Origin: a virus
Taxonomy: Duplodnaviria; Heunggongvirae; Uroviricota; Caudoviricetes
Direction: 5' to 3' (one strand)
Virus record (IMG/VR): IMGVR_UViG_2778261446_000004
Length of the DNA: 5,986 bases
Shown here: piece after piece, positions 1-5,684 of the stretch
Position numbering within the stretch: the first letter of the stretch is position 1
Layout: every line of letters starts with the position of its first letter
Notes under the pieces: model-generated
Told to the model about the DNA's origin: nothing
Databases searched by the model: none
What the model saw: the letters and a program-made list of their open reading frames with translations, nothing else
Position numbers and translations under genes: made by a program

Positions 1-132
1 GTCCATTTCCGCGCAGACGATGACGTCACTGCCCGGCTGTATGCGCGAGGTTACCGACTGCGGCCTGAGTTTTTTAAGTGACGTAAAATCGTGTTGAGGC
101 CAACGCCCATAATGCGGGCAGTTGCCCGGCAT
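1..132 (-). CDS. insB: IS1 InsB' (catalytic part of the InsAB' transposase), first 44 codons only; partial at window edge
   Basis: Minus-strand ATG at 130..132 followed by [44 protein letters not shown], which I recognise as the IS1 InsB N-terminus. It is in the -1 frame relative to insA and runs off the window start. Confidence 0.85.
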
Positions 133-326
133 CCAACGCCATTCATGGCCATATCAATGATTTTCTGGTGCGTACCGGGTTGAGAAGCGGTGTAAGTGAA
201 CTGCAGTTGCCATGTTTTACGGCAGTGAGAGCAGAGATAGCGCTGATGTCCGGCAGTGCTTTTGCCGTTACGCACCACCCCGTCAGTAGCTGAACAGGAG
301 GGACAGCTGATAGAAACAGAAGCCAC
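51..326 (-). CDS. insA: IS1 InsA (DNA-binding regulator and N-terminal part of the InsAB' frameshift transposase)
   Basis: The 91-aa translation matches the IS1 InsA protein as I remember it, including the Cys-rich zinc-finger-like N-terminus (CPSCS...CSHC). It starts with GTG (minus strand 324..326) as in IS1, and the stop TAA is at 51..53. Confidence 0.95.
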
Positions 327-401: not shown

Positions 402-432
402 ATAAAAATAACGCGCCCAGCAAAGGCGCGCT
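402..432 (-). terminator. Rho-independent terminator for the small minus-strand ORF
   Basis: GC-rich hairpin (CGCGCC 412..417 pairs with GGCGCG 425..430, 7-nt loop). On the minus strand it is followed by a U-tract, the reverse complement of 402..410 (TATTTTTAT). It begins 5 nt after the ORF stop at 438..440. Confidence 0.6.
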
Positions 433-437
433 CTGCA

Positions 438-614
438 TCAGGTAAGTTGGCTGGAGTCAGTGGTATCCATCCAATCTGGAGCTATTCCCAGACGTTCCGC
501 TATCTCTTCGTTGGTCATGTCTTCAGTTGATAAATCCACCAGACAATCGTTAACTTCAGGATAGTCAGGGGGAAGTAACAGGTATCCCCGCAACGCTTTC
601 AGGTCTTTTTCCAT
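438..614 (-). CDS. Hypothetical small acidic protein (58 aa), function unknown; possible regulator
   Basis: ATG at 612..614 (minus) is preceded by a consensus Shine-Dalgarno AAGGAG (reverse complement of 623..628) with 8-nt spacing. Translation is MEKDLKALRGYLLLPPDYPEVNDCLVDLSTEDMTNEEIAERLGIAPDWMDTTDSSQLT. The ORF-track start (TTG at 671) has no RBS and would run through a palindrome, so the shorter ORF is preferred. The NEEIAERLGI segment resembles the first helix of LuxR/sigma region-4 HTH motifs, but the motif is incomplete. Confidence 0.5.
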   Translation of the reverse strand: MEKDLKALRGYLLLPPDYPEVNDCLVDLSTEDMTNEEIAERLGIAPDWMDTTDSSQLT

Positions 615-731: not shown

Positions 732-785
732 GCTGTTTCTTTCGCCTAGCTCAACATATCGCCTTAACTACCAGCCATTATCCTT

Positions 786-797
786 GTCTCAATTGGG
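786..797 (+). repeat. 12-bp motif copy A (GTCTCAATTGGG), direct copy of the motif in the inverted repeat below
   Basis: Matches copy B (GTCTCAATAGGG, 825..836) at 11 of 12 positions. It is embedded in a 7-bp inverted repeat CCTTGTC (782..788) / GACAAGG (809..815). Confidence 0.5.
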
Positions 798-824
798 TAT
801 ACCGTAATGACAAGGTGATACAAA

Positions 825-840
825 GTCTCAATAGGGTTGT
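825..840 (+). repeat. Left arm of a perfect 16-bp inverted repeat (motif copy B); candidate recombinase binding half-site
   Basis: GTCTCAATAGGGTTGT at 825..840 is the exact reverse complement of 895..910. The arms enclose 54 bp that contain the recombinase promoter. Confidence 0.6.
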
Positions 841-851
841 ATAGGAACATT

Positions 852-880
852 TTGACTACACAAAATGCATTATGTATCAT
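852..880 (+). promoter_or_regulatory. Candidate sigma70 promoter for the serine recombinase gene
   Basis: -35 TTGACT (852..857), 17-bp spacer, -10 TATCAT (875..880). The predicted start site is about 30 nt upstream of the ATG at 917. The promoter sits entirely between the two inverted-repeat arms. Confidence 0.5.
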
Positions 881-894
881 TTGCACTTATATTC

Positions 895-910
895 ACAACC
901 CTATTGAGAC
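895..910 (-). repeat. Right arm of the perfect 16-bp inverted repeat (motif copy C, inverted)
   Basis: ACAACCCTATTGAGAC at 895..910 is the reverse complement of 825..840. It ends 6 bp before the recombinase start codon. Confidence 0.6.
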
Positions 911-916
911 AATGCA

Positions 917-1543
917 ATGAACGTTAGAATTTACTGCCGAGCATCAACTGAGGGGCAACACGCTGATCGAGCACTTACCAGCCTACGTGAATTTTCAAAA
1001 TCAAAAGGCTGGCAGATTGCAGGAGAGTATATAGAAAATGCTAGCGGGGCGAAGCTTGAGCGCGTAGAGCTTATGCGGCTATTGTCTGAAGCCCAGTCCG
1101 GCGATCTGTTGCTAGTGGAAGCTATAGATCGTCTGAGTCGCCTAGAACATAGCGCATGGGTCGAACTGAAAGATACGCTCAACCGAAAAGGGTTAATCAT
1201 CGTATCAATGGATTTACCAACGAGCTGGCAGATGGTCGAGATGGCAGGCAATGACCTAACCAGCGGCATCCTGAGAGCCGTAAATGCCATGTTGATTGAT
1301 ATCCTTGCCACAATGGCACGGCAGGATTACGAAACACGTCGTAAACGCCAACAGCAAGGCATTGAGCGAGCTAAAAGCGAAGGAATATACATTGGCAGGG
1401 AGAAAAATCAGGAAGCCCGAGAGATCGTTAGAGAGATGTTGGAGCAAGGAGTAAAACCTGAACTCATCATGAAGGCAGCAGGAATCAGCCGAGCGACTTA
1501 CTACCGTATAAAAAGTGAGCTGTCAGTCGTAAAATCAGAATAA
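917..1543 (+). CDS. Small serine recombinase (resolvase/invertase family), 208 aa
   Basis: N-terminal catalytic motif Y6-x-R8-A-S10-T-E-G-Q14 (the canonical YxRVSTxxQ with V replaced by A, nucleophile Ser10 present). Conserved D71-R72-L-S-R75 (DRLSR motif). E/R/Q-rich helix around residues 126-141 (dimerisation helix E). C-terminal HTH-like segment (ELIMKAAGISRATYYRIKSE). Immediately preceded by repeats and its own promoter. Confidence 0.9.
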   Translation: MNVRIYCRASTEGQHADRALTSLREFSKSKGWQIAGEYIENASGAKLERVELMRLLSEAQSGDLLLVEAIDRLSRLEHSAWVELKDTLNRKGLIIVSMDLPTSWQMVEMAGNDLTSGILRAVNAMLIDILATMARQDYETRRKRQQQGIERAKSEGIYIGREKNQEAREIVREMLEQGVKPELIMKAAGISRATYYRIKSELSVVKSE

Positions 1544-1677
1544 CCTTTGAAAGGTCGTCAGGCTTGTTTCATCTGCTAAAAGCCAGCATTTCTGACCATA
1601 ATACCTGGGGGCACCTACTGGGGCACCCACCAAAATCGAAAGACAAATAAGTTATAATTCAATCTGTTAGTTTACTT

Positions 1678-1700
1678 TTCGATTCCTGCAGGGGACACCA
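1678..1700 (+). other. 3'-terminal 23-nt fragment of tRNA-Arg (argW type, ...TTCGATTCCTGCAGGGGACACCA); candidate att core / direct repeat marking an integrative-element junction
   Basis: TTCGATTCCTGCAGGGGACACCA reproduces the T-loop, 3' T-stem, acceptor 3' strand and CCA end of E. coli tRNA-Arg(CCU) as I recall it. The upstream sequence (tttactt...) cannot pair as a T-stem or acceptor stem, so this is not an intact tRNA gene. It lies 161 bp upstream of the integrase start codon. Confidence 0.75.
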
Positions 1701-1861: not shown

Positions 1862-3019
1862 ATGCTCACCGTTAAGCAGATTGAAGCAGCAAAGCCGAAA
1901 GAAAAACCATACCGTCTTCTCGATGGTAATGGCCTGTACCTTTATGTCCCTGTGTCAGGGAAAAAGGTATGGCAGCTTCGCTACAAGATTGACGGTAAGG
2001 AGAAAATCCTGACCGTAGGAAAATATCCGCTAATGACTTTGCAGGAGGCAAGGGATAAGGCATGGACTGCGAGGAAAGACATCTCGGTTGGCATCGATCC
2101 GGTAAAGGCGAAAAAGTCTTCGTCTAACAACAATTCCTTTAGTGCGATTTACAAGGAATGGTACGAGCACAAGAAGCAAGTATGGTCAGTAGGGTATGCG
2201 ACTGAACTTGCAAAAATGTTTGATGACGACATTTTACCTATCATCGGCGGCCTTGAAATTCAGGATATTGAGCCGATGCAACTGCTGGAAGTAATCCGCA
2301 GATTTGAAGATCGCGGTGCAATGGAGCGAGCAAATAAAGCCCGCAGAAGATGCGGCGAGGTTTTCCGTTACGCTATTGTCACCGGCAGGGCTAAATATAA
2401 CCCGGCACCTGACCTTGCTGACGCCATGAAGGGATACCGCAAGAAGAACTTCCCGTTTCTTCCAGCAGACCATATCCCTGCATTTAACAAAGCACTGACA
2501 ACATTTTCAGGAAGTATCGTATCGCTCATTGCGACCAAAGTTTTACGCTACACAGCCCTAAGAACGAAAGAGCTTCGTTCCATGCTATGGAAGAACGTCG
2601 ATTTTGAAAACAGGATTATCACCATCGACGCCAGTGTAATGAAGGGACGCAAAATTCATGTGGTTCCTATGTCAGACCAGGTAGTTGAACTTCTCACTAC
2701 GCTAAGCTCAATCACCAAACCAGTATCAGAGTTTGTTTTTGCCGGGCGCAACGATAAGAAAAAGCCAATTTGCGAGAACGCTGTACTGCTTGTGATCAAA
2801 CAAATCGGCTATGAAGGTCTGGAAAGCGGTCACGGATTCAGGCATGAATTCAGCACGATTATGAACGAGCACGAATGGCCTGCTGATGCTATTGAAGTGC
2901 AACTGGCACATGCCAACGGCGGATCTGTGCGCGGGATTTACAACCATGCTCAGTATCTCGATAAGCGCAGAGAAATGATGCAGTGGTGGGCGGACTGGAT
3001 TGATGAAAAGGTCTCCTGA
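1862..3019 (+). CDS. intS: P4-family tyrosine integrase, IntS-like (argW-associated prophage integrase), 385 aa
   Basis: The translation from the ATG at 1862 (MLTVKQIEAAKPKEKPYRLLDGNGLYLYVPVSGKKVWQLRY...) matches my recollection of E. coli CPS-53/KpLE1 IntS, and that start gives 385 aa. N-terminal DUF4102-like arm-binding region. C-terminal tyrosine-recombinase catalytic residues are present (conserved Arg in LRYTALRTKELR, HGFRHEF H-x-x-R box, Tyr in GIYNHAQYL). The upstream in-frame ATG at 1826 (ORF-track start) would add 12 residues and is an alternative start. Confidence 0.9.
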   Translation: MLTVKQIEAAKPKEKPYRLLDGNGLYLYVPVSGKKVWQLRYKIDGKEKILTVGKYPLMTLQEARDKAWTARKDISVGIDPVKAKKSSSNNNSFSAIYKEWYEHKKQVWSVGYATELAKMFDDDILPIIGGLEIQDIEPMQLLEVIRRFEDRGAMERANKARRRCGEVFRYAIVTGRAKYNPAPDLADAMKGYRKKNFPFLPADHIPAFNKALTTFSGSIVSLIATKVLRYTALRTKELRSMLWKNVDFENRIITIDASVMKGRKIHVVPMSDQVVELLTTLSSITKPVSEFVFAGRNDKKKPICENAVLLVIKQIGYEGLESGHGFRHEFSTIMNEHEWPADAIEVQLAHANGGSVRGIYNHAQYLDKRREMMQWWADWIDEKVS

Positions 3020-3346
3020 TTATATCGCCGGGTTATCGTCATCGGTGGCCCGGTTAATCAGATGCGTCAGAACAACCTTCACATCCACCTCATCCAAAAC
3101 CTCACCATCCACCGTTATCAGTGCATCACCTCTACGCTTGGCAAAGTGACAACCGCCTGAGTACGAAATCAGGTAGGTGCTTTCCGGCGATGGCTTCATA
3201 CCCTTCTCTATCACAGCAAACCCATGCGATGTCTCAATCACCAGGCTGTTAGCATTTACGCCGCAGATAGTCTCTATGGTTAGCGTGCGTTCAATATAGT
3301 CTTTTGCTGGCGATGGAAAACCCACGGTTGCCTCCACTCTTGACAC
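3020..3346 (-). CDS. UmuD'-like (peptidase S24 / UmuD-MucA family) protein, N-terminally truncated and possibly degenerate
   Basis: Near the N-terminus is GFPSPAKDYIE, matching the UmuD/MucA signature (UmuD: CGFPSPAADYVEQ). Later, RGDALITVDGEV resembles UmuD HGDIVIAAVDGEF. The ORF begins only 7 residues before the GFPSPA motif (UmuD has a 24-residue cleavable arm). I could not align a G-D-S-M catalytic-serine block (the region reads SYSGGCH). GTG start with no Shine-Dalgarno. A LexA box lies 22 bp upstream. Could be a remnant or pseudogene. Confidence 0.4.
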   Translation of the reverse strand: MSRVEATVGFPSPAKDYIERTLTIETICGVNANSLVIETSHGFAVIEKGMKPSPESTYLISYSGGCHFAKRRGDALITVDGEVLDEVDVKVVLTHLINRATDDDNPAI

Positions 3347-3402: not shown

Positions 3403-3669
3403 ATGTTTGTGGAATTGGTTTATGACAAGCGCAATGTAGAGGGGCTCGAAGGGGCCAGAGAGATTATCCTGGCAGAGCTGACGAAGCGAGTGCACCAGAT
3501 TTTCCCTGATGCCGAAGTGAGGGTGAAGCCGATGCAGGCGAACGGCCTGAATAGCGATGCAAGTAAAAACGATCGGGAGAAGCTGAACCGCATGCTGGAG
3601 GATATGTTTGAAGAGGCCGATATGTGGCTGGTATCTGAGTTCCCGACCGTTCGCCAAGTTGGGCTGTAA
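3403..3669 (+). CDS. DinI-family protein (DNA-damage-inducible protein I-like), 88 aa
   Basis: Aligns by eye to E. coli DinI across its length: N-terminal M-x-V-E-L, central ELxxRV-x-x-x-FPD-x-E-V-x-V, and C-terminal acidic E-x-AD-x-W-L-VSE (DinI ends ...ESADDWFVSE). Good RBS, upstream LexA box, downstream terminator. Confidence 0.85.
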   Translation: MFVELVYDKRNVEGLEGAREIILAELTKRVHQIFPDAEVRVKPMQANGLNSDASKNDREKLNRMLEDMFEEADMWLVSEFPTVRQVGL

Positions 3670-3788: not shown

Positions 3789-5684
3789 ATGAAACTCGCA
3801 AGCAGTGGATTCAGATTTGACATCAACGGGCTGAGGGCTGTAGCCGTATTGGCCGTTATCATTTTTCACTATAAAGATTCCTGGCTTCCCGGCGGATACG
3901 CGGGTGTGGATGTATTCTTTGTGATATCTGGTTTTTTAATGACCTCTATTATTTTCTCAGGGGTTGAGAAAGGACAATTCAATCTATTTAAATTCTACGC
4001 TGCGAGAATTAAAAGAATCATCCCTGCACTTATCGCTATCTCTATGATAGTTGTTTTTCTTGGCTACTTTCTCATCGAACCATTGAGTTACCAAATGATT
4101 GGTAATCATGTGAAATCAAGCCTTCTTTTTATATCCAATATTGTATATAGAGATGAGGCTGGTTATTTTGATACGGAATCGTCAAGGAAATATTTATTAC
4201 ATACCTGGTCGTTATCTGTCGAATGGCAATTTTATTTAATTTATCCATTACTGGTAATTTTTGCTAAAAGAGCATTATCGTTTAGCAGCTTAAAGAAAAT
4301 TGTATTGGTTGCAGTATTTGTACTCTTTTTCTTGAATATTTACGTCACAAAAACCGACCCAACATCCTCATACTACATGCTTTATTCCAGGGCGTGGGAA
4401 ATGCTTCTTGGTGGTTTGGCTTTCTTATACCCTGCTAAATCGATTTCGAATAGAACAAGAAATTACGGTTCAGTTCTATGTTTGGCGGCTTTAATTGGCA
4501 CATTTTTTATTTTGGACAACCAAGACCCTTGGCCGGGATACTATGCACTTCTTCCTGTAGTTTTGGCTTTCGGCATTATTTTGTTGAATGGAAGCAATGC
4601 TTTACTTTCAAATAAGGTTATGCAGTACATAGGACTAATATCCTATTCTATTTATTTAGTTCACTGGCCCTTGTTGGTTTTTAACAGAACCTTAAACTTT
4701 GGCTTAAATTTTATTTCTTATGTCGTGATTACGTTTGCTATTGCGACATTGATTTACATGACTTTTGAGTCAAAGAGAAGAAGTGTTATCTTTACAGTTG
4801 TTTTGTACTCGATTGCTCTTGGTGTGGCATGGAAAGTTTCAGTTGCAGGCGTAACAAGTCGTGTTAACACGGAGTTTCAGTTAACCAAGCAACAATTCAG
4901 GAATAAATTTGAAGGGCACGCCGGGTTGGGTTCTTATGATAAAGTTGATTATTTTAATTCAACAGAAAATGATTTCGAATACATATTGATTGGTGATAGC
5001 CATGCTCGTCACTACTTCCAGTATATTAATAAAAATGAAAAAGTTGCCAGCCTTGCTTTAGACGGATGCAAATCTACAGAAAATTTCTATCCGACATCCC
5101 CATCACCTTTGATGATAAAACTATGTAAAGCTCGTTATAAAATGCAGGTAGATTTCATCAATGCGCACCCAGGAAAACCAGTAATATTATCACAAAGTGG
5201 TTTCGGGGTTTTACCGAGTTCATTTTCACGTGGCACTGATGAACCTATCGGTGATGGTCATGATTTCAATTCATTGGGTTTAGAAGAACTACATCTATTT
5301 ATTAATCGGATTAAAGACACTAAACATAAACTGTTTGTTATAGGTGACACGCAAGGGAGTGAAGGCGTTATGTTTGAATGCCTTGCTAAAGAAAATCTGC
5401 CAATCAATAGAATATTCAATGTAACATCCTGCCCTATAAAACAGGAATACAAACCTAAAAAATACAATCAAATTCTTGAGGCTAACGCTGAGAAGCTTGG
5501 GTATACATATATCAGCCCTGATCCTGCGCTATGTGATGGAAAAGAATGTATAATAGTTAAAGATGGTATGCCTATGTATACTGATAGTAGCCATCTTTCA
5601 AAGCTGGCCTCTGAAATTGTAGGGGACTATGTATTTAGAGAGATAAAGAAACAAGAAATTTCAACAAGCAATAAAGATAATTAA
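3789..5684 (+). CDS. Acyltransferase-3 / SGNH fusion protein (OafA/OatA-type), probable O-antigen or surface-carbohydrate O-acetyltransferase, 631 aa
   Basis: N-terminal AT3 signature (FRFDINGLRAVAVLAVIIFH, the R-x-D-x-L-R-x-x-A motif with a conserved His). About 350 aa of repeated hydrophobic segments, consistent with a multi-pass membrane domain. C-terminal soluble domain carries an SGNH block-I GDSH motif (YILIGDSHARHYF). The coding sequence looks AT-rich by eye compared with the integrase; GC content was not computed. No Shine-Dalgarno upstream of the ATG. Confidence 0.85.
   Translation: MKLASSGFRFDINGLRAVAVLAVIIFHYKDSWLPGGYAGVDVFFVISGFLMTSIIFSGVEKGQFNLFKFYAARIKRIIPALIAISMIVVFLGYFLIEPLSYQMIGNHVKSSLLFISNIVYRDEAGYFDTESSRKYLLHTWSLSVEWQFYLIYPLLVIFAKRALSFSSLKKIVLVAVFVLFFLNIYVTKTDPTSSYYMLYSRAWEMLLGGLAFLYPAKSISNRTRNYGSVLCLAALIGTFFILDNQDPWPGYYALLPVVLAFGIILLNGSNALLSNKVMQYIGLISYSIYLVHWPLLVFNRTLNFGLNFISYVVITFAIATLIYMTFESKRRSVIFTVVLYSIALGVAWKVSVAGVTSRVNTEFQLTKQQFRNKFEGHAGLGSYDKVDYFNSTENDFEYILIGDSHARHYFQYINKNEKVASLALDGCKSTENFYPTSPSPLMIKLCKARYKMQVDFINAHPGKPVILSQSGFGVLPSSFSRGTDEPIGDGHDFNSLGLEELHLFINRIKDTKHKLFVIGDTQGSEGVMFECLAKENLPINRIFNVTSCPIKQEYKPKKYNQILEANAEKLGYTYISPDPALCDGKECIIVKDGMPMYTDSSHLSKLASEIVGDYVFREIKKQEISTSNKDN

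Follow-up and report, generated by a model that had tools for sequence, protein, structure and literature searches.

The stretch of DNA analysed here, called the window throughout, is 5,986 nucleotides long and is 100% identical to the tRNA-Arg argW chromosomal region of E. coli strains S163-2, TUM9754 and DETEC-P61. The genes and features outside the repeats are given by position.

1-381: end of an IS1 element
410-432: terminator-like hairpin by the 58-aa open reading frame
438-614, minus strand: acidic, divergent open reading frame (ORF) of 58 aa, context only
917-1543, plus strand: small serine recombinase of 208 aa, WP_001102877.1, 'recombinase family protein' in RefSeq
1678-1700, plus strand: 23-nt copy of the argW 3' end, attR of the recombinase island and attL of the next prophage
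1862-3019: intS gene of a second, tandem prophage
3403-3669: DinI-family gene
3789-5684: acyltransferase gene

No known RNA or tRNA gene was found in the window. Given the order of the features, with the argW copy following at 1678-1700 and the next prophage behind it, the recombinase sits at the far end, on the attR side, of a small argW-integrated island. The intact island of strain 127 is ~10 kb long, and carries in order a tyrosine integrase, an AlpA-like protein, a G2P-type rolling-circle Rep, two large cargo genes, the small ORF, the repeats and the recombinase, followed by dsdC. Only some of the argW islands with the recombinase module encode a rolling-circle Rep, and the neighbours of the module in E. 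coli are dsdC or csc genes. Annotated cargo of the argW islands includes a SIR2-family protein, GapS6a with HetE-N and PIN-TPR-GreABC proteins, and HsdR. The PADLOC models gave no match for the recombinase, the small ORF or the cargo of strain 127. An origin of the module in a phage or satellite was considered and rejected, with only two matches in viral contigs and weak ones in phage records.

Of 5,426 complete E. coli genomes, 548, among them O157:H7 EDL933, have the repeat region that precedes the recombinase gene, always on the chromosome. The recombinase protein is found in ~10% of the complete E. coli genomes. In the assembly collection searched, more than 11,000 blocks are indexed with exactly this sequence. 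The 58-aa ORF stands beside the site only in the E. coli/Citrobacter/Kluyvera clade, where other types of left arm carry homologues of 43-83% identity, and it has no family match above the curated cut-off in Pfam, NCBIfam or PADLOC.

The recombinase matches the Pfam family Resolvase (PF00239) over residues 5-156, with an E-value of 2.2e-23 and 83.4 bits (cut-off 23.3). Among solved structures its best relative is Sin/Tn552 Bin3 (2r0q; E 1.5e-15, residues 6-201), followed by the gamma-delta resolvase (E 3e-10), which also aligns over residues 6-201; both alignments run through residue 201, over the C-terminal region. The HTH_7 match (E 0.0029, 18.1 bits) lies below its cut-off of 23.8. Both catalytic motifs are present, YCRAS with R8 and S10 and IDRLSR with D71, R72 and R75, the gamma-delta counterparts being R8, S10, D67, R68 and R71. 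These residues are invariant in 23 homologues, down to 47% identity. Citrobacter alleles and the more diverged alleles of E. coli differ by 14-50 nucleotides and by only 4-10 amino acids (50 nucleotide changes give 10, and 26 give 6). Because the allele differences are mostly synonymous, the recombinase can be argued to be still functional. No study was found in the literature on the E. coli gene or on relatives above ~40% identity.

The segment before the start codon had been singled out in a sequence-only reading, which proposed a res-like site of the recombinase built from three copies of a 12-bp motif, GTCTCAATWGGG, two of them direct and one inverted. The coordinates of all three copies are exact, as are those of the other elements described there.

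786-797, plus strand: copy A, GTCTCAATTGGG, a direct sequence match
825-836, plus strand, and 899-910, minus strand: copies B and C, GTCTCAATAGGG, direct sequence matches
825-840, plus strand: left arm of a 16-nt inverted repeat, the left half of site II plus 2 bp
895-910, minus strand: right arm of the inverted repeat, the right half of site III plus 2 bp
852-880, plus strand: sigma-70-type promoter-like site, with -35 TTGACT at 852-857, a 17-nt spacer and -10 TATCAT at 875-880

The arms of the inverted repeat are 100% complementary over 16 nt and enclose 54 nt, which by direct count hold 15 G or C (28%), so that the perfect repeat around an AT-rich segment is found as described. The right arm ends at 910, six bp before the ATG at 917, again as described. 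The predicted promoter matches 10 of 12 positions and lies on the plus strand, which agrees with the earlier assignment of a good sigma-70 promoter aimed at the recombinase gene. The positions of its -35 and -10 elements are conserved in the Enterobacterales alignment. A weaker promoter-like site with 9 of 12 matches faces the opposite way in the same segment, at 898-869.

The three repeats and the 16-bp inverted repeat stand far above the level expected by chance. With gaps of at most 150 permitted, the longest perfect inverted repeat is 16 nt in the window as against 8-13 nt in 60 dinucleotide shuffles of it. At least three matches to the 12-mer were obtained in 7 of 200 shuffles when up to two mismatches were permitted. 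A second measure was provided by a 14-nt weight matrix trained only on half-sites of 13 other genera. Among 11,946 window positions, its top three matches are 786-799 (19.1 bits), 825-838 (18.2) and 897-910 (18.2), each of which contains one of the copies, whereas the third-best score over 100 shuffles has a mean of 8.8 and a maximum of 11.4.

These matches can be extended to six half-sites of 14 bp with the consensus GTCTCAWTWGGGTA, arranged as three inverted pairs with a spacing of 28-11-34-15-37. Copies A, B and C would each be the strong half of one predicted subsite, I, II and III respectively. The predicted site begins at 786 and ends at 910, followed by the ATG at 917, and it overlaps the promoter.

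786-813: site I, 28 bp, the presumed crossover site
786-799: left half of site I, GTCTCAATTGGGTA, containing copy A
800-813: right half of site I, TTGTCATTACGGTA on the minus strand
796-803: palindromic core GGTA/TACC of site I, with the central dinucleotide at 799-800
825-858: site II, 34 bp, a predicted accessory site
825-838: left half of site II, GTCTCAATAGGGTT, containing copy B
845-858: right half of site II, degenerate in E. coli, carrying the -35 element
874-910: site III, 37 bp, a predicted accessory site
874-887: left half of site III, GTATCATTTGCACT, degenerate in E. coli, carrying the -10 element
897-910: right half of site III, GTCTCAATAGGGTT on the minus strand, containing copy C

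The half-site at 800-813, the fourth best weight-matrix match in the window, had been missed in the sequence-only reading. It is clear in its own right, and pairs with copy A to form a 28-bp site of the crossover type around GGTATACC. The right half of site II (rank 431 of 11,946) is a poor match in E. coli, and the left half of site III ranks 54 of 11,946. By the weight matrix, E. coli has three strong half-sites, one moderate one and two weak ones (II-right and III-left). All six are recognisable in 13 other Enterobacterales sequences.

The layout was compared in 80 loci that were fetched for relatives of 45-97% identity from Enterobacterales, Halomonas, Pseudomonas, Marinobacter, Rhizobiales and others; with plasmid copies added, ~95 related loci were compared in all. 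The same layout is found in the ~135 bp before the start codon in all but a few of the ~80 loci, from Enterobacterales to Rhizobiales. It consists of a 28-30-bp inverted pair around a conserved core, GGGTATACC, then an inverted pair that encloses or contains a TTGAC -35 element, and a third pair that adjoins the start codon. GGTATACC with no more than one mismatch was located in 50 of 79 loci, where its median position relative to the start codon is -117; the count for control regions is 2 of 78. In 68% of the upstream regions some hexamer is present three times or more, as against 17% of shuffles and 28% of control regions. The layout thus accompanies the gene in homologous loci, and the repeat motifs themselves are specific to lineages.

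The core GGTATACC is retained across lineages, and the outer half-sites vary, with the motifs GTCTCA, GGTTCG, GTATCA, GTATCG, TGTAGCG and GCGACC at unchanged offsets. GTCTCA stands at -131, -92 and -12 in the window, and CGAACC/GGTTCG at -119, -95, -78, -47, -32 and -18 in Rhizobiales; the repeats read CGATAC in Halomonas, TGATAC in Pseudomonas and GAGACA in Marinobacter. The motif co-varies with the predicted C-terminal recognition helix of the recombinase, in the following pairs.

Recognition helix SRATYYRIK or SRATFYRIK: half-site GTCTC
Recognition helix CSRSTLSRLAKR: half-site GGTTCG
Recognition helix CSTTTVLRIRD: half-site GTATCA
Recognition helix CSTNTVQRVRA: half-site TGTAGCG

The two halves that are degenerate in E. 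coli, II-right and III-left, are clear in other genera. The halves of site II form an 11-bp perfect inverted repeat, TCAATAGGGTT...AACCCTATTGA, in Raoultella (L005) and in a metagenome-assembled genome (L012), and TTGAC of the right half is (near-)invariant in 15 Enterobacterales sequences. The left half of site III in other genera is GTATCAT(A/T)TGGGTA, near-identical to the left half of site I. Site III takes the form of a direct instead of an inverted repeat in Rhizobiales, Pseudomonas and Marinobacter. Since site III can be direct and the site has its own spacing, the geometry of the synapse cannot simply be transferred from a known system.

It is very unlikely that the repeats arose by chance or that another protein binds them, for example the 58-aa product or a host factor. 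The shuffles of the 12-mer leave some room for chance, and the small ORF holds a faint sigma-70 region 4-like stretch, at E 0.0075 below the cut-off. The inverted-repeat shuffles and the weight matrix argue against chance, however, and the layout is kept with the recombinase in plasmids and genera where the small ORF is missing. No other gene is conserved beside the recombinase in the 80 loci, as judged by all-against-all ORF clustering: the best cluster covers 12 loci, with a representative that has no Pfam match, and a cluster of five loci is the type I restriction subunit HsdR. The co-variation with the recombinase helix-turn-helix is also against a different protein. Taken with the layout, the co-variation and the breakpoints described below, the proposal of a res-like site with several subsites at the promoter stands, and 786-910 is probably the cognate res site (125 bp) of the adjacent small serine recombinase, with three subsites.

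The part of that proposal that does not stand is the 16-bp inverted repeat as a unit bracketing the promoter. Its arms are the outer half-sites of two different predicted subsites, II-left and III-right, each of which has a weaker inverted partner of its own, and for this reason the inverted repeat is not a functional unit. Its perfection is specific to a lineage, as it is broken in strain 127 by a T at 896 and in EDL933 by a change at 903, and in other genera only ~5-12 bases match between the arms equivalent to 825-840 and 895-910.

Perfect inverted repeats around a promoter could also suggest that the recombinase flips the 54-bp segment between its own gene and the divergent small gene, in the manner of Hin or Mpi. 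The weaker reverse promoter-like site would fit such a switch, and among NCBIfam models the protein matches the Mpi invertase family best, although its 37.9 bits fall short of the cut-off of 272. When the segment 841-894 was inverted and used as a query against the 5,426 E. coli genomes, all 547 full-length matches were at ~82% identity or less. No genome (0 of 547) therefore carries the segment in the inverted orientation, and a promoter switch was rejected as highly improbable. The perfection of the repeat varies even within E. coli, the arms in other genera are no more alike than any two half-sites, each arm has its own partner, and the best solved relatives of the protein are resolvases. 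A distance of 54 bp between sites is moreover very short for a serine-recombinase synapse.

The strain comparison that the earlier reading had suggested, for rearrangements in the repeats, gave switch points of the left arm at 784-799 and no inversion in 547 genomes. Ten contexts with exactly the same protein were compared, together with strains 127 and Z1323, and they fall into three haplotypes. Over the right arm (800-1700), which reaches from the middle of site I to where the att copy ends, every one of them matches the window with 0-2 mismatches, and homology between the E. coli haplotypes stops at 1701. The left arms are of three types.

Type A: identical to the window
Type A': 49 differences in 438-785 (348 positions), the last at 783
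Type B: largely unalignable as DNA to ~764, then 5 differences in 21 positions, the last at 786 and 794

Type B carries a 68-aa homologue of the small ORF that is 43% identical. The switch points are thus at 784-799 for type A' and at 795-799 for type B, and both intervals end at the centre of site I. Purifying selection cannot account for a flank diverged by 14-19% beside 627 coding bases that lack any synonymous difference, and the boundary is a recombination junction. The breakpoints suggest past crossovers at site I, and the position of the junction matches the prediction of a crossover at the central dinucleotide, 799-800. As only two independent haplotype contrasts are informative, this evidence is suggestive, not conclusive.

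The breakpoints bear on a further explanation, in which the repeats are only an operator: the recombinase would be kept for DNA binding, to regulate either its own gene or the divergent small one, with no present recombination. Such a role is consistent with the copy number, with the strong half-sites flanking the promoter and the weak ones overlapping it, and with stable inheritance of the module beside dsdC or csc genes. The search of genomes for further motif copies or a partner site, also suggested earlier, returned a single copy in each of the 548 E. coli genomes with the site, with no second copy or partner site in the same chromosome; the 548 genomes have 549 places, the extra one being a single site split by IS1203. 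An operator would need neither invariant R8, S10, D71, R72 and R75 nor the 28-bp crossover-type site with GGTATACC, which lies ~50 bp upstream of the promoter and is not needed for repression, nor would it produce haplotype breakpoints at the centre of site I. An operator alone is accordingly considered unlikely; it overlaps with the res site reading, given that autoregulation is part of both. The single copy per genome and the degeneracy of two of the six half-sites in E. coli are among the points against a res site.

The candidate site resembles the res sites of Tn3 and gamma-delta in its position directly upstream of the resolvase gene, in its three predicted subsites of inverted half-sites beginning (T)GTC, in the lengths of sites I and II (28 bp and 34 bp) and in accessory subsites that would cover the resolvase promoter. 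The geometry of Tn3 res is 28-22-34-5-25, with sites I and II of 28 and 34 bp. The spacers here are 11 and 15 bp as against 22 and 5, and site III is 37 bp as against 25. The total lengths are similar, 114 bp for Tn3 res (PMC2428073) as compared with 125 bp for the candidate site. The protein is only distantly related to the Tn3 and gamma-delta resolvases, and the element that hosts it is an island integrated at a tRNA gene and no transposon. Neither a Tn3-family transposase nor terminal repeats were found near the gene, and no transposase is conserved beside it in the 80 loci. As no transposase is linked and the spacers and site III differ, the module is not part of a Tn3-family transposon.

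The likeness to Sin lies in the protein, of ~200-210 aa with a longer linker before the helix-turn-helix, and in the relatives from Rhizobiales, Pseudomonas and Marinobacter, which have head-to-tail half-sites beside the gene (-32, -18) as in Sin site II. Sin serves in plasmid dimer resolution (PMC2428073), and its res site of 86 bp has only two Sin sites and a spacer bent by HU/IHF (PMC2428073, PMC2764113). The E. coli site differs in having three inverted pairs over 125 bp and an 11-bp spacer from site I to site II, and it shows no obvious need for a spacer-bending protein.

Among plasmid proteins, a gene annotated 'parA: plasmid stabilization protein, resolvase' (H70) is 35% identical over 98% of the query. 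ParA of RP4/RK2, from the work of Eberl et al. in 1994, is said to be a plasmid-backbone serine resolvase that is autoregulated and has its site in its own promoter region. The identity to the annotated parA gene is only 35%, and the gene in the window stands alone, whereas ParA is in a parCBA operon. Plasmid-borne relatives found in the comparison are those of Enterobacter IncFIB and other plasmids (82% identity), of a 5.8-kb Erwinia plasmid (61%) and of IncP-9 pWW0 (47.8%). The Enterobacter and Erwinia copies show the same three-subsite layout. The pWW0 gene is among the closest plasmid relatives found; it differs in having two direct copies of ACTGATAC, one at -88 and one at -60, and GGTATACC is missing from the 150 bp examined, so that the layout in pWW0 would be different or shifted. 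No study of the site of the pWW0 homologue was found. The plasmid relatives point to the multimer-resolution class, to which the G2P-type Rep and the integrase of the host island lend indirect support. A link between plasmids and islands as carriers was considered and rejected, given that the recombinase module is all that the E. coli island has in common with pTR_1_35 or the Erwinia plasmid. The candidate would be ordinary in kind, a res site whose resolvase is autoregulated. Sites of this type are well known, and no study was found of this member of the family.

In the mechanism proposed for the res site, a dimer of the recombinase would bind site I (786-813), and strand exchange would occur at 799-800 of GGTA/TACC. 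Sites II (825-858) and III (874-910) would be accessory and would build a synaptic complex with the dimers at site I, which would limit recombination to two direct res sites on one supercoiled molecule, such that the outcome is resolution or deletion. Since sites II and III overlap the -35 and -10 elements, of which the former lies inside II-right and the latter inside III-left, autorepression is proposed as well: the same binding would cover the promoter and repress the recombinase gene. The likely substrates would be multimers of an excised, circular island that encodes Rep, or two res-bearing elements in tandem. The model draws on what is established for Tn3/gamma-delta and on the studies of Sin (PMC2428073, PMC2764113). 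By analogy with Tn3/gamma-delta, Sin or RP4 ParA, the site most likely serves both resolution and autorepression.

It is possible, if rather doubtful, that the module collapses tandem islands at argW and swaps their cargo in doing so. In short, a new res-bearing island would integrate at argW beside the resident one, and the resolvase would delete all that lies between the two direct res sites. The result would be a hybrid of the incoming left arm and the resident right arm, in which the integrase and the cargo, often anti-phage, are joined at site I to I-right, the recombinase and attR. If true, tandem collapse would explain why one arm (800-1700) occurs with three left arms, why no genome has two copies of res, and how the module persists in ~10% of E. 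coli. A classical resolvase would then drive the turnover of cargo at a chromosomal hotspot for defence islands.

For a protein annotated only as 'recombinase family protein', the analysis provides a testable map that places six half-sites, the crossover core and the promoter. The family is large and supplies numerous natural combinations of a recognition helix with its half-site; these may be of use for the engineering of orthogonal small serine recombinases. Site III also switches within the family, being inverted in some members and direct in others. Should the breakpoints at site I be real crossovers, the module would help to account for the exchange of cargo, in many cases defence genes, at the argW hotspot.

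The stretch that starts at the centre of site I of the res region and finishes with the att copy's final base (window 800-1700) differs at 0-2 positions from its counterparts in the compared loci L002, L091 and L092-L101. The strains that share it differ in their left arms, in their cargo and in their downstream genes, which are dsdC, csc genes or a prophage. Judged from these alignments, 800-1700 behaves like a unit with a site-specific recombination site at each boundary.

Two elements with one intS gene each stand in tandem at argW (window 1678-1700 and 1862-3019; 7355-14640 of compared locus L001). The first is a 5.9-kb remnant that holds intS, an O-antigen polymerase gene, IS1 and the recombinase module, and the second is a prophage that starts inside the window. 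An IS1 end occupies the cargo position, where other strains have cargo of other kinds (SIR2-like, 821-826 aa proteins, or GapS6a/HetE-N with PIN-TPR-GreABC). The acyltransferase gene of the prophage is likely an O-antigen modification moron.

Features of the two elements (window positions)
1-381, IS1 end, whose terminal repeat stops near 381
51-326, minus strand, insA, within the IS1 end
3020-3346, minus strand, prophage ORF of 108 aa that has no Pfam match
3403-3669, plus strand, prophage DinI-family gene (E 3e-23)
3789-5684, plus strand, prophage gene of 631 aa, acyltransferase family by its RefSeq name
5738-5986, minus strand, start of a prophage tail-fibre assembly gene that continues beyond the window

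A small acidic ORF is divergent from the recombinase gene, and a search for a family match to its protein returned none.

Features of the small acidic ORF
window 410-432, terminator-like hairpin beside the ORF
window 438-614, minus strand, small acidic ORF of 58 aa
L091 1061-1267, minus strand, its counterpart in that compared locus

In the other left-arm types (haplotypes upstream of the site I centre), where the recombinase is identical or nearly so, the identity of the small-ORF protein is 83%, 74%, 49% and 43%. Between type A, the type of the window, and type A', 17 nucleotide changes give 10 amino acid changes. By these comparisons, the small ORF evolves very fast relative to the recombinase, and the res region might control it.

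Defence genes also neighbour the recombinase module elsewhere. The gene for a type I restriction R subunit (HsdR) adjoins the module in several alphaproteobacterial loci, a further case of such neighbours.

HsdR genes in compared loci
L021 4639-7833, minus strand
L050 4972-8172, minus strand

Interruption of the res region was found in 1 of 548 genomes. In that genome, E. coli O157:H7 F8492 (L087), the site is split at about window position 823/824 by IS1203, an IS3-family element that sits within the 11 bp separating site I from site II. A degraded copy in Kluyvera genomosp. 3 (L014 3808-4615) has no res region, and its recombinase gene is truncated to a 111-aa ORF, with a small-ORF tail fused close to it.

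Upstream of the homologue on the IncP-9 plasmid pWW0 (47.8% identical; L086 488-637), ACTGATAC occurs twice in direct orientation, at -88 and -60, and GGTATACC is absent from those 150 bp; a pWW0 site, if any, would have another arrangement or lie further upstream. Relatives from Rhizobiales, Pseudomonas and Marinobacter (L021, L047, L054, L061, L078 and others) have their two gene-proximal half-sites between -50 and -15 relative to the start codon. These two form a head-to-tail direct repeat with a distance of 14-15 bp, like the one in Sin site II. Site III of the Enterobacterales consists of an inverted pair spanning 37 bp. Judged from these sequences, the accessory-site architecture has changed inside one protein family.
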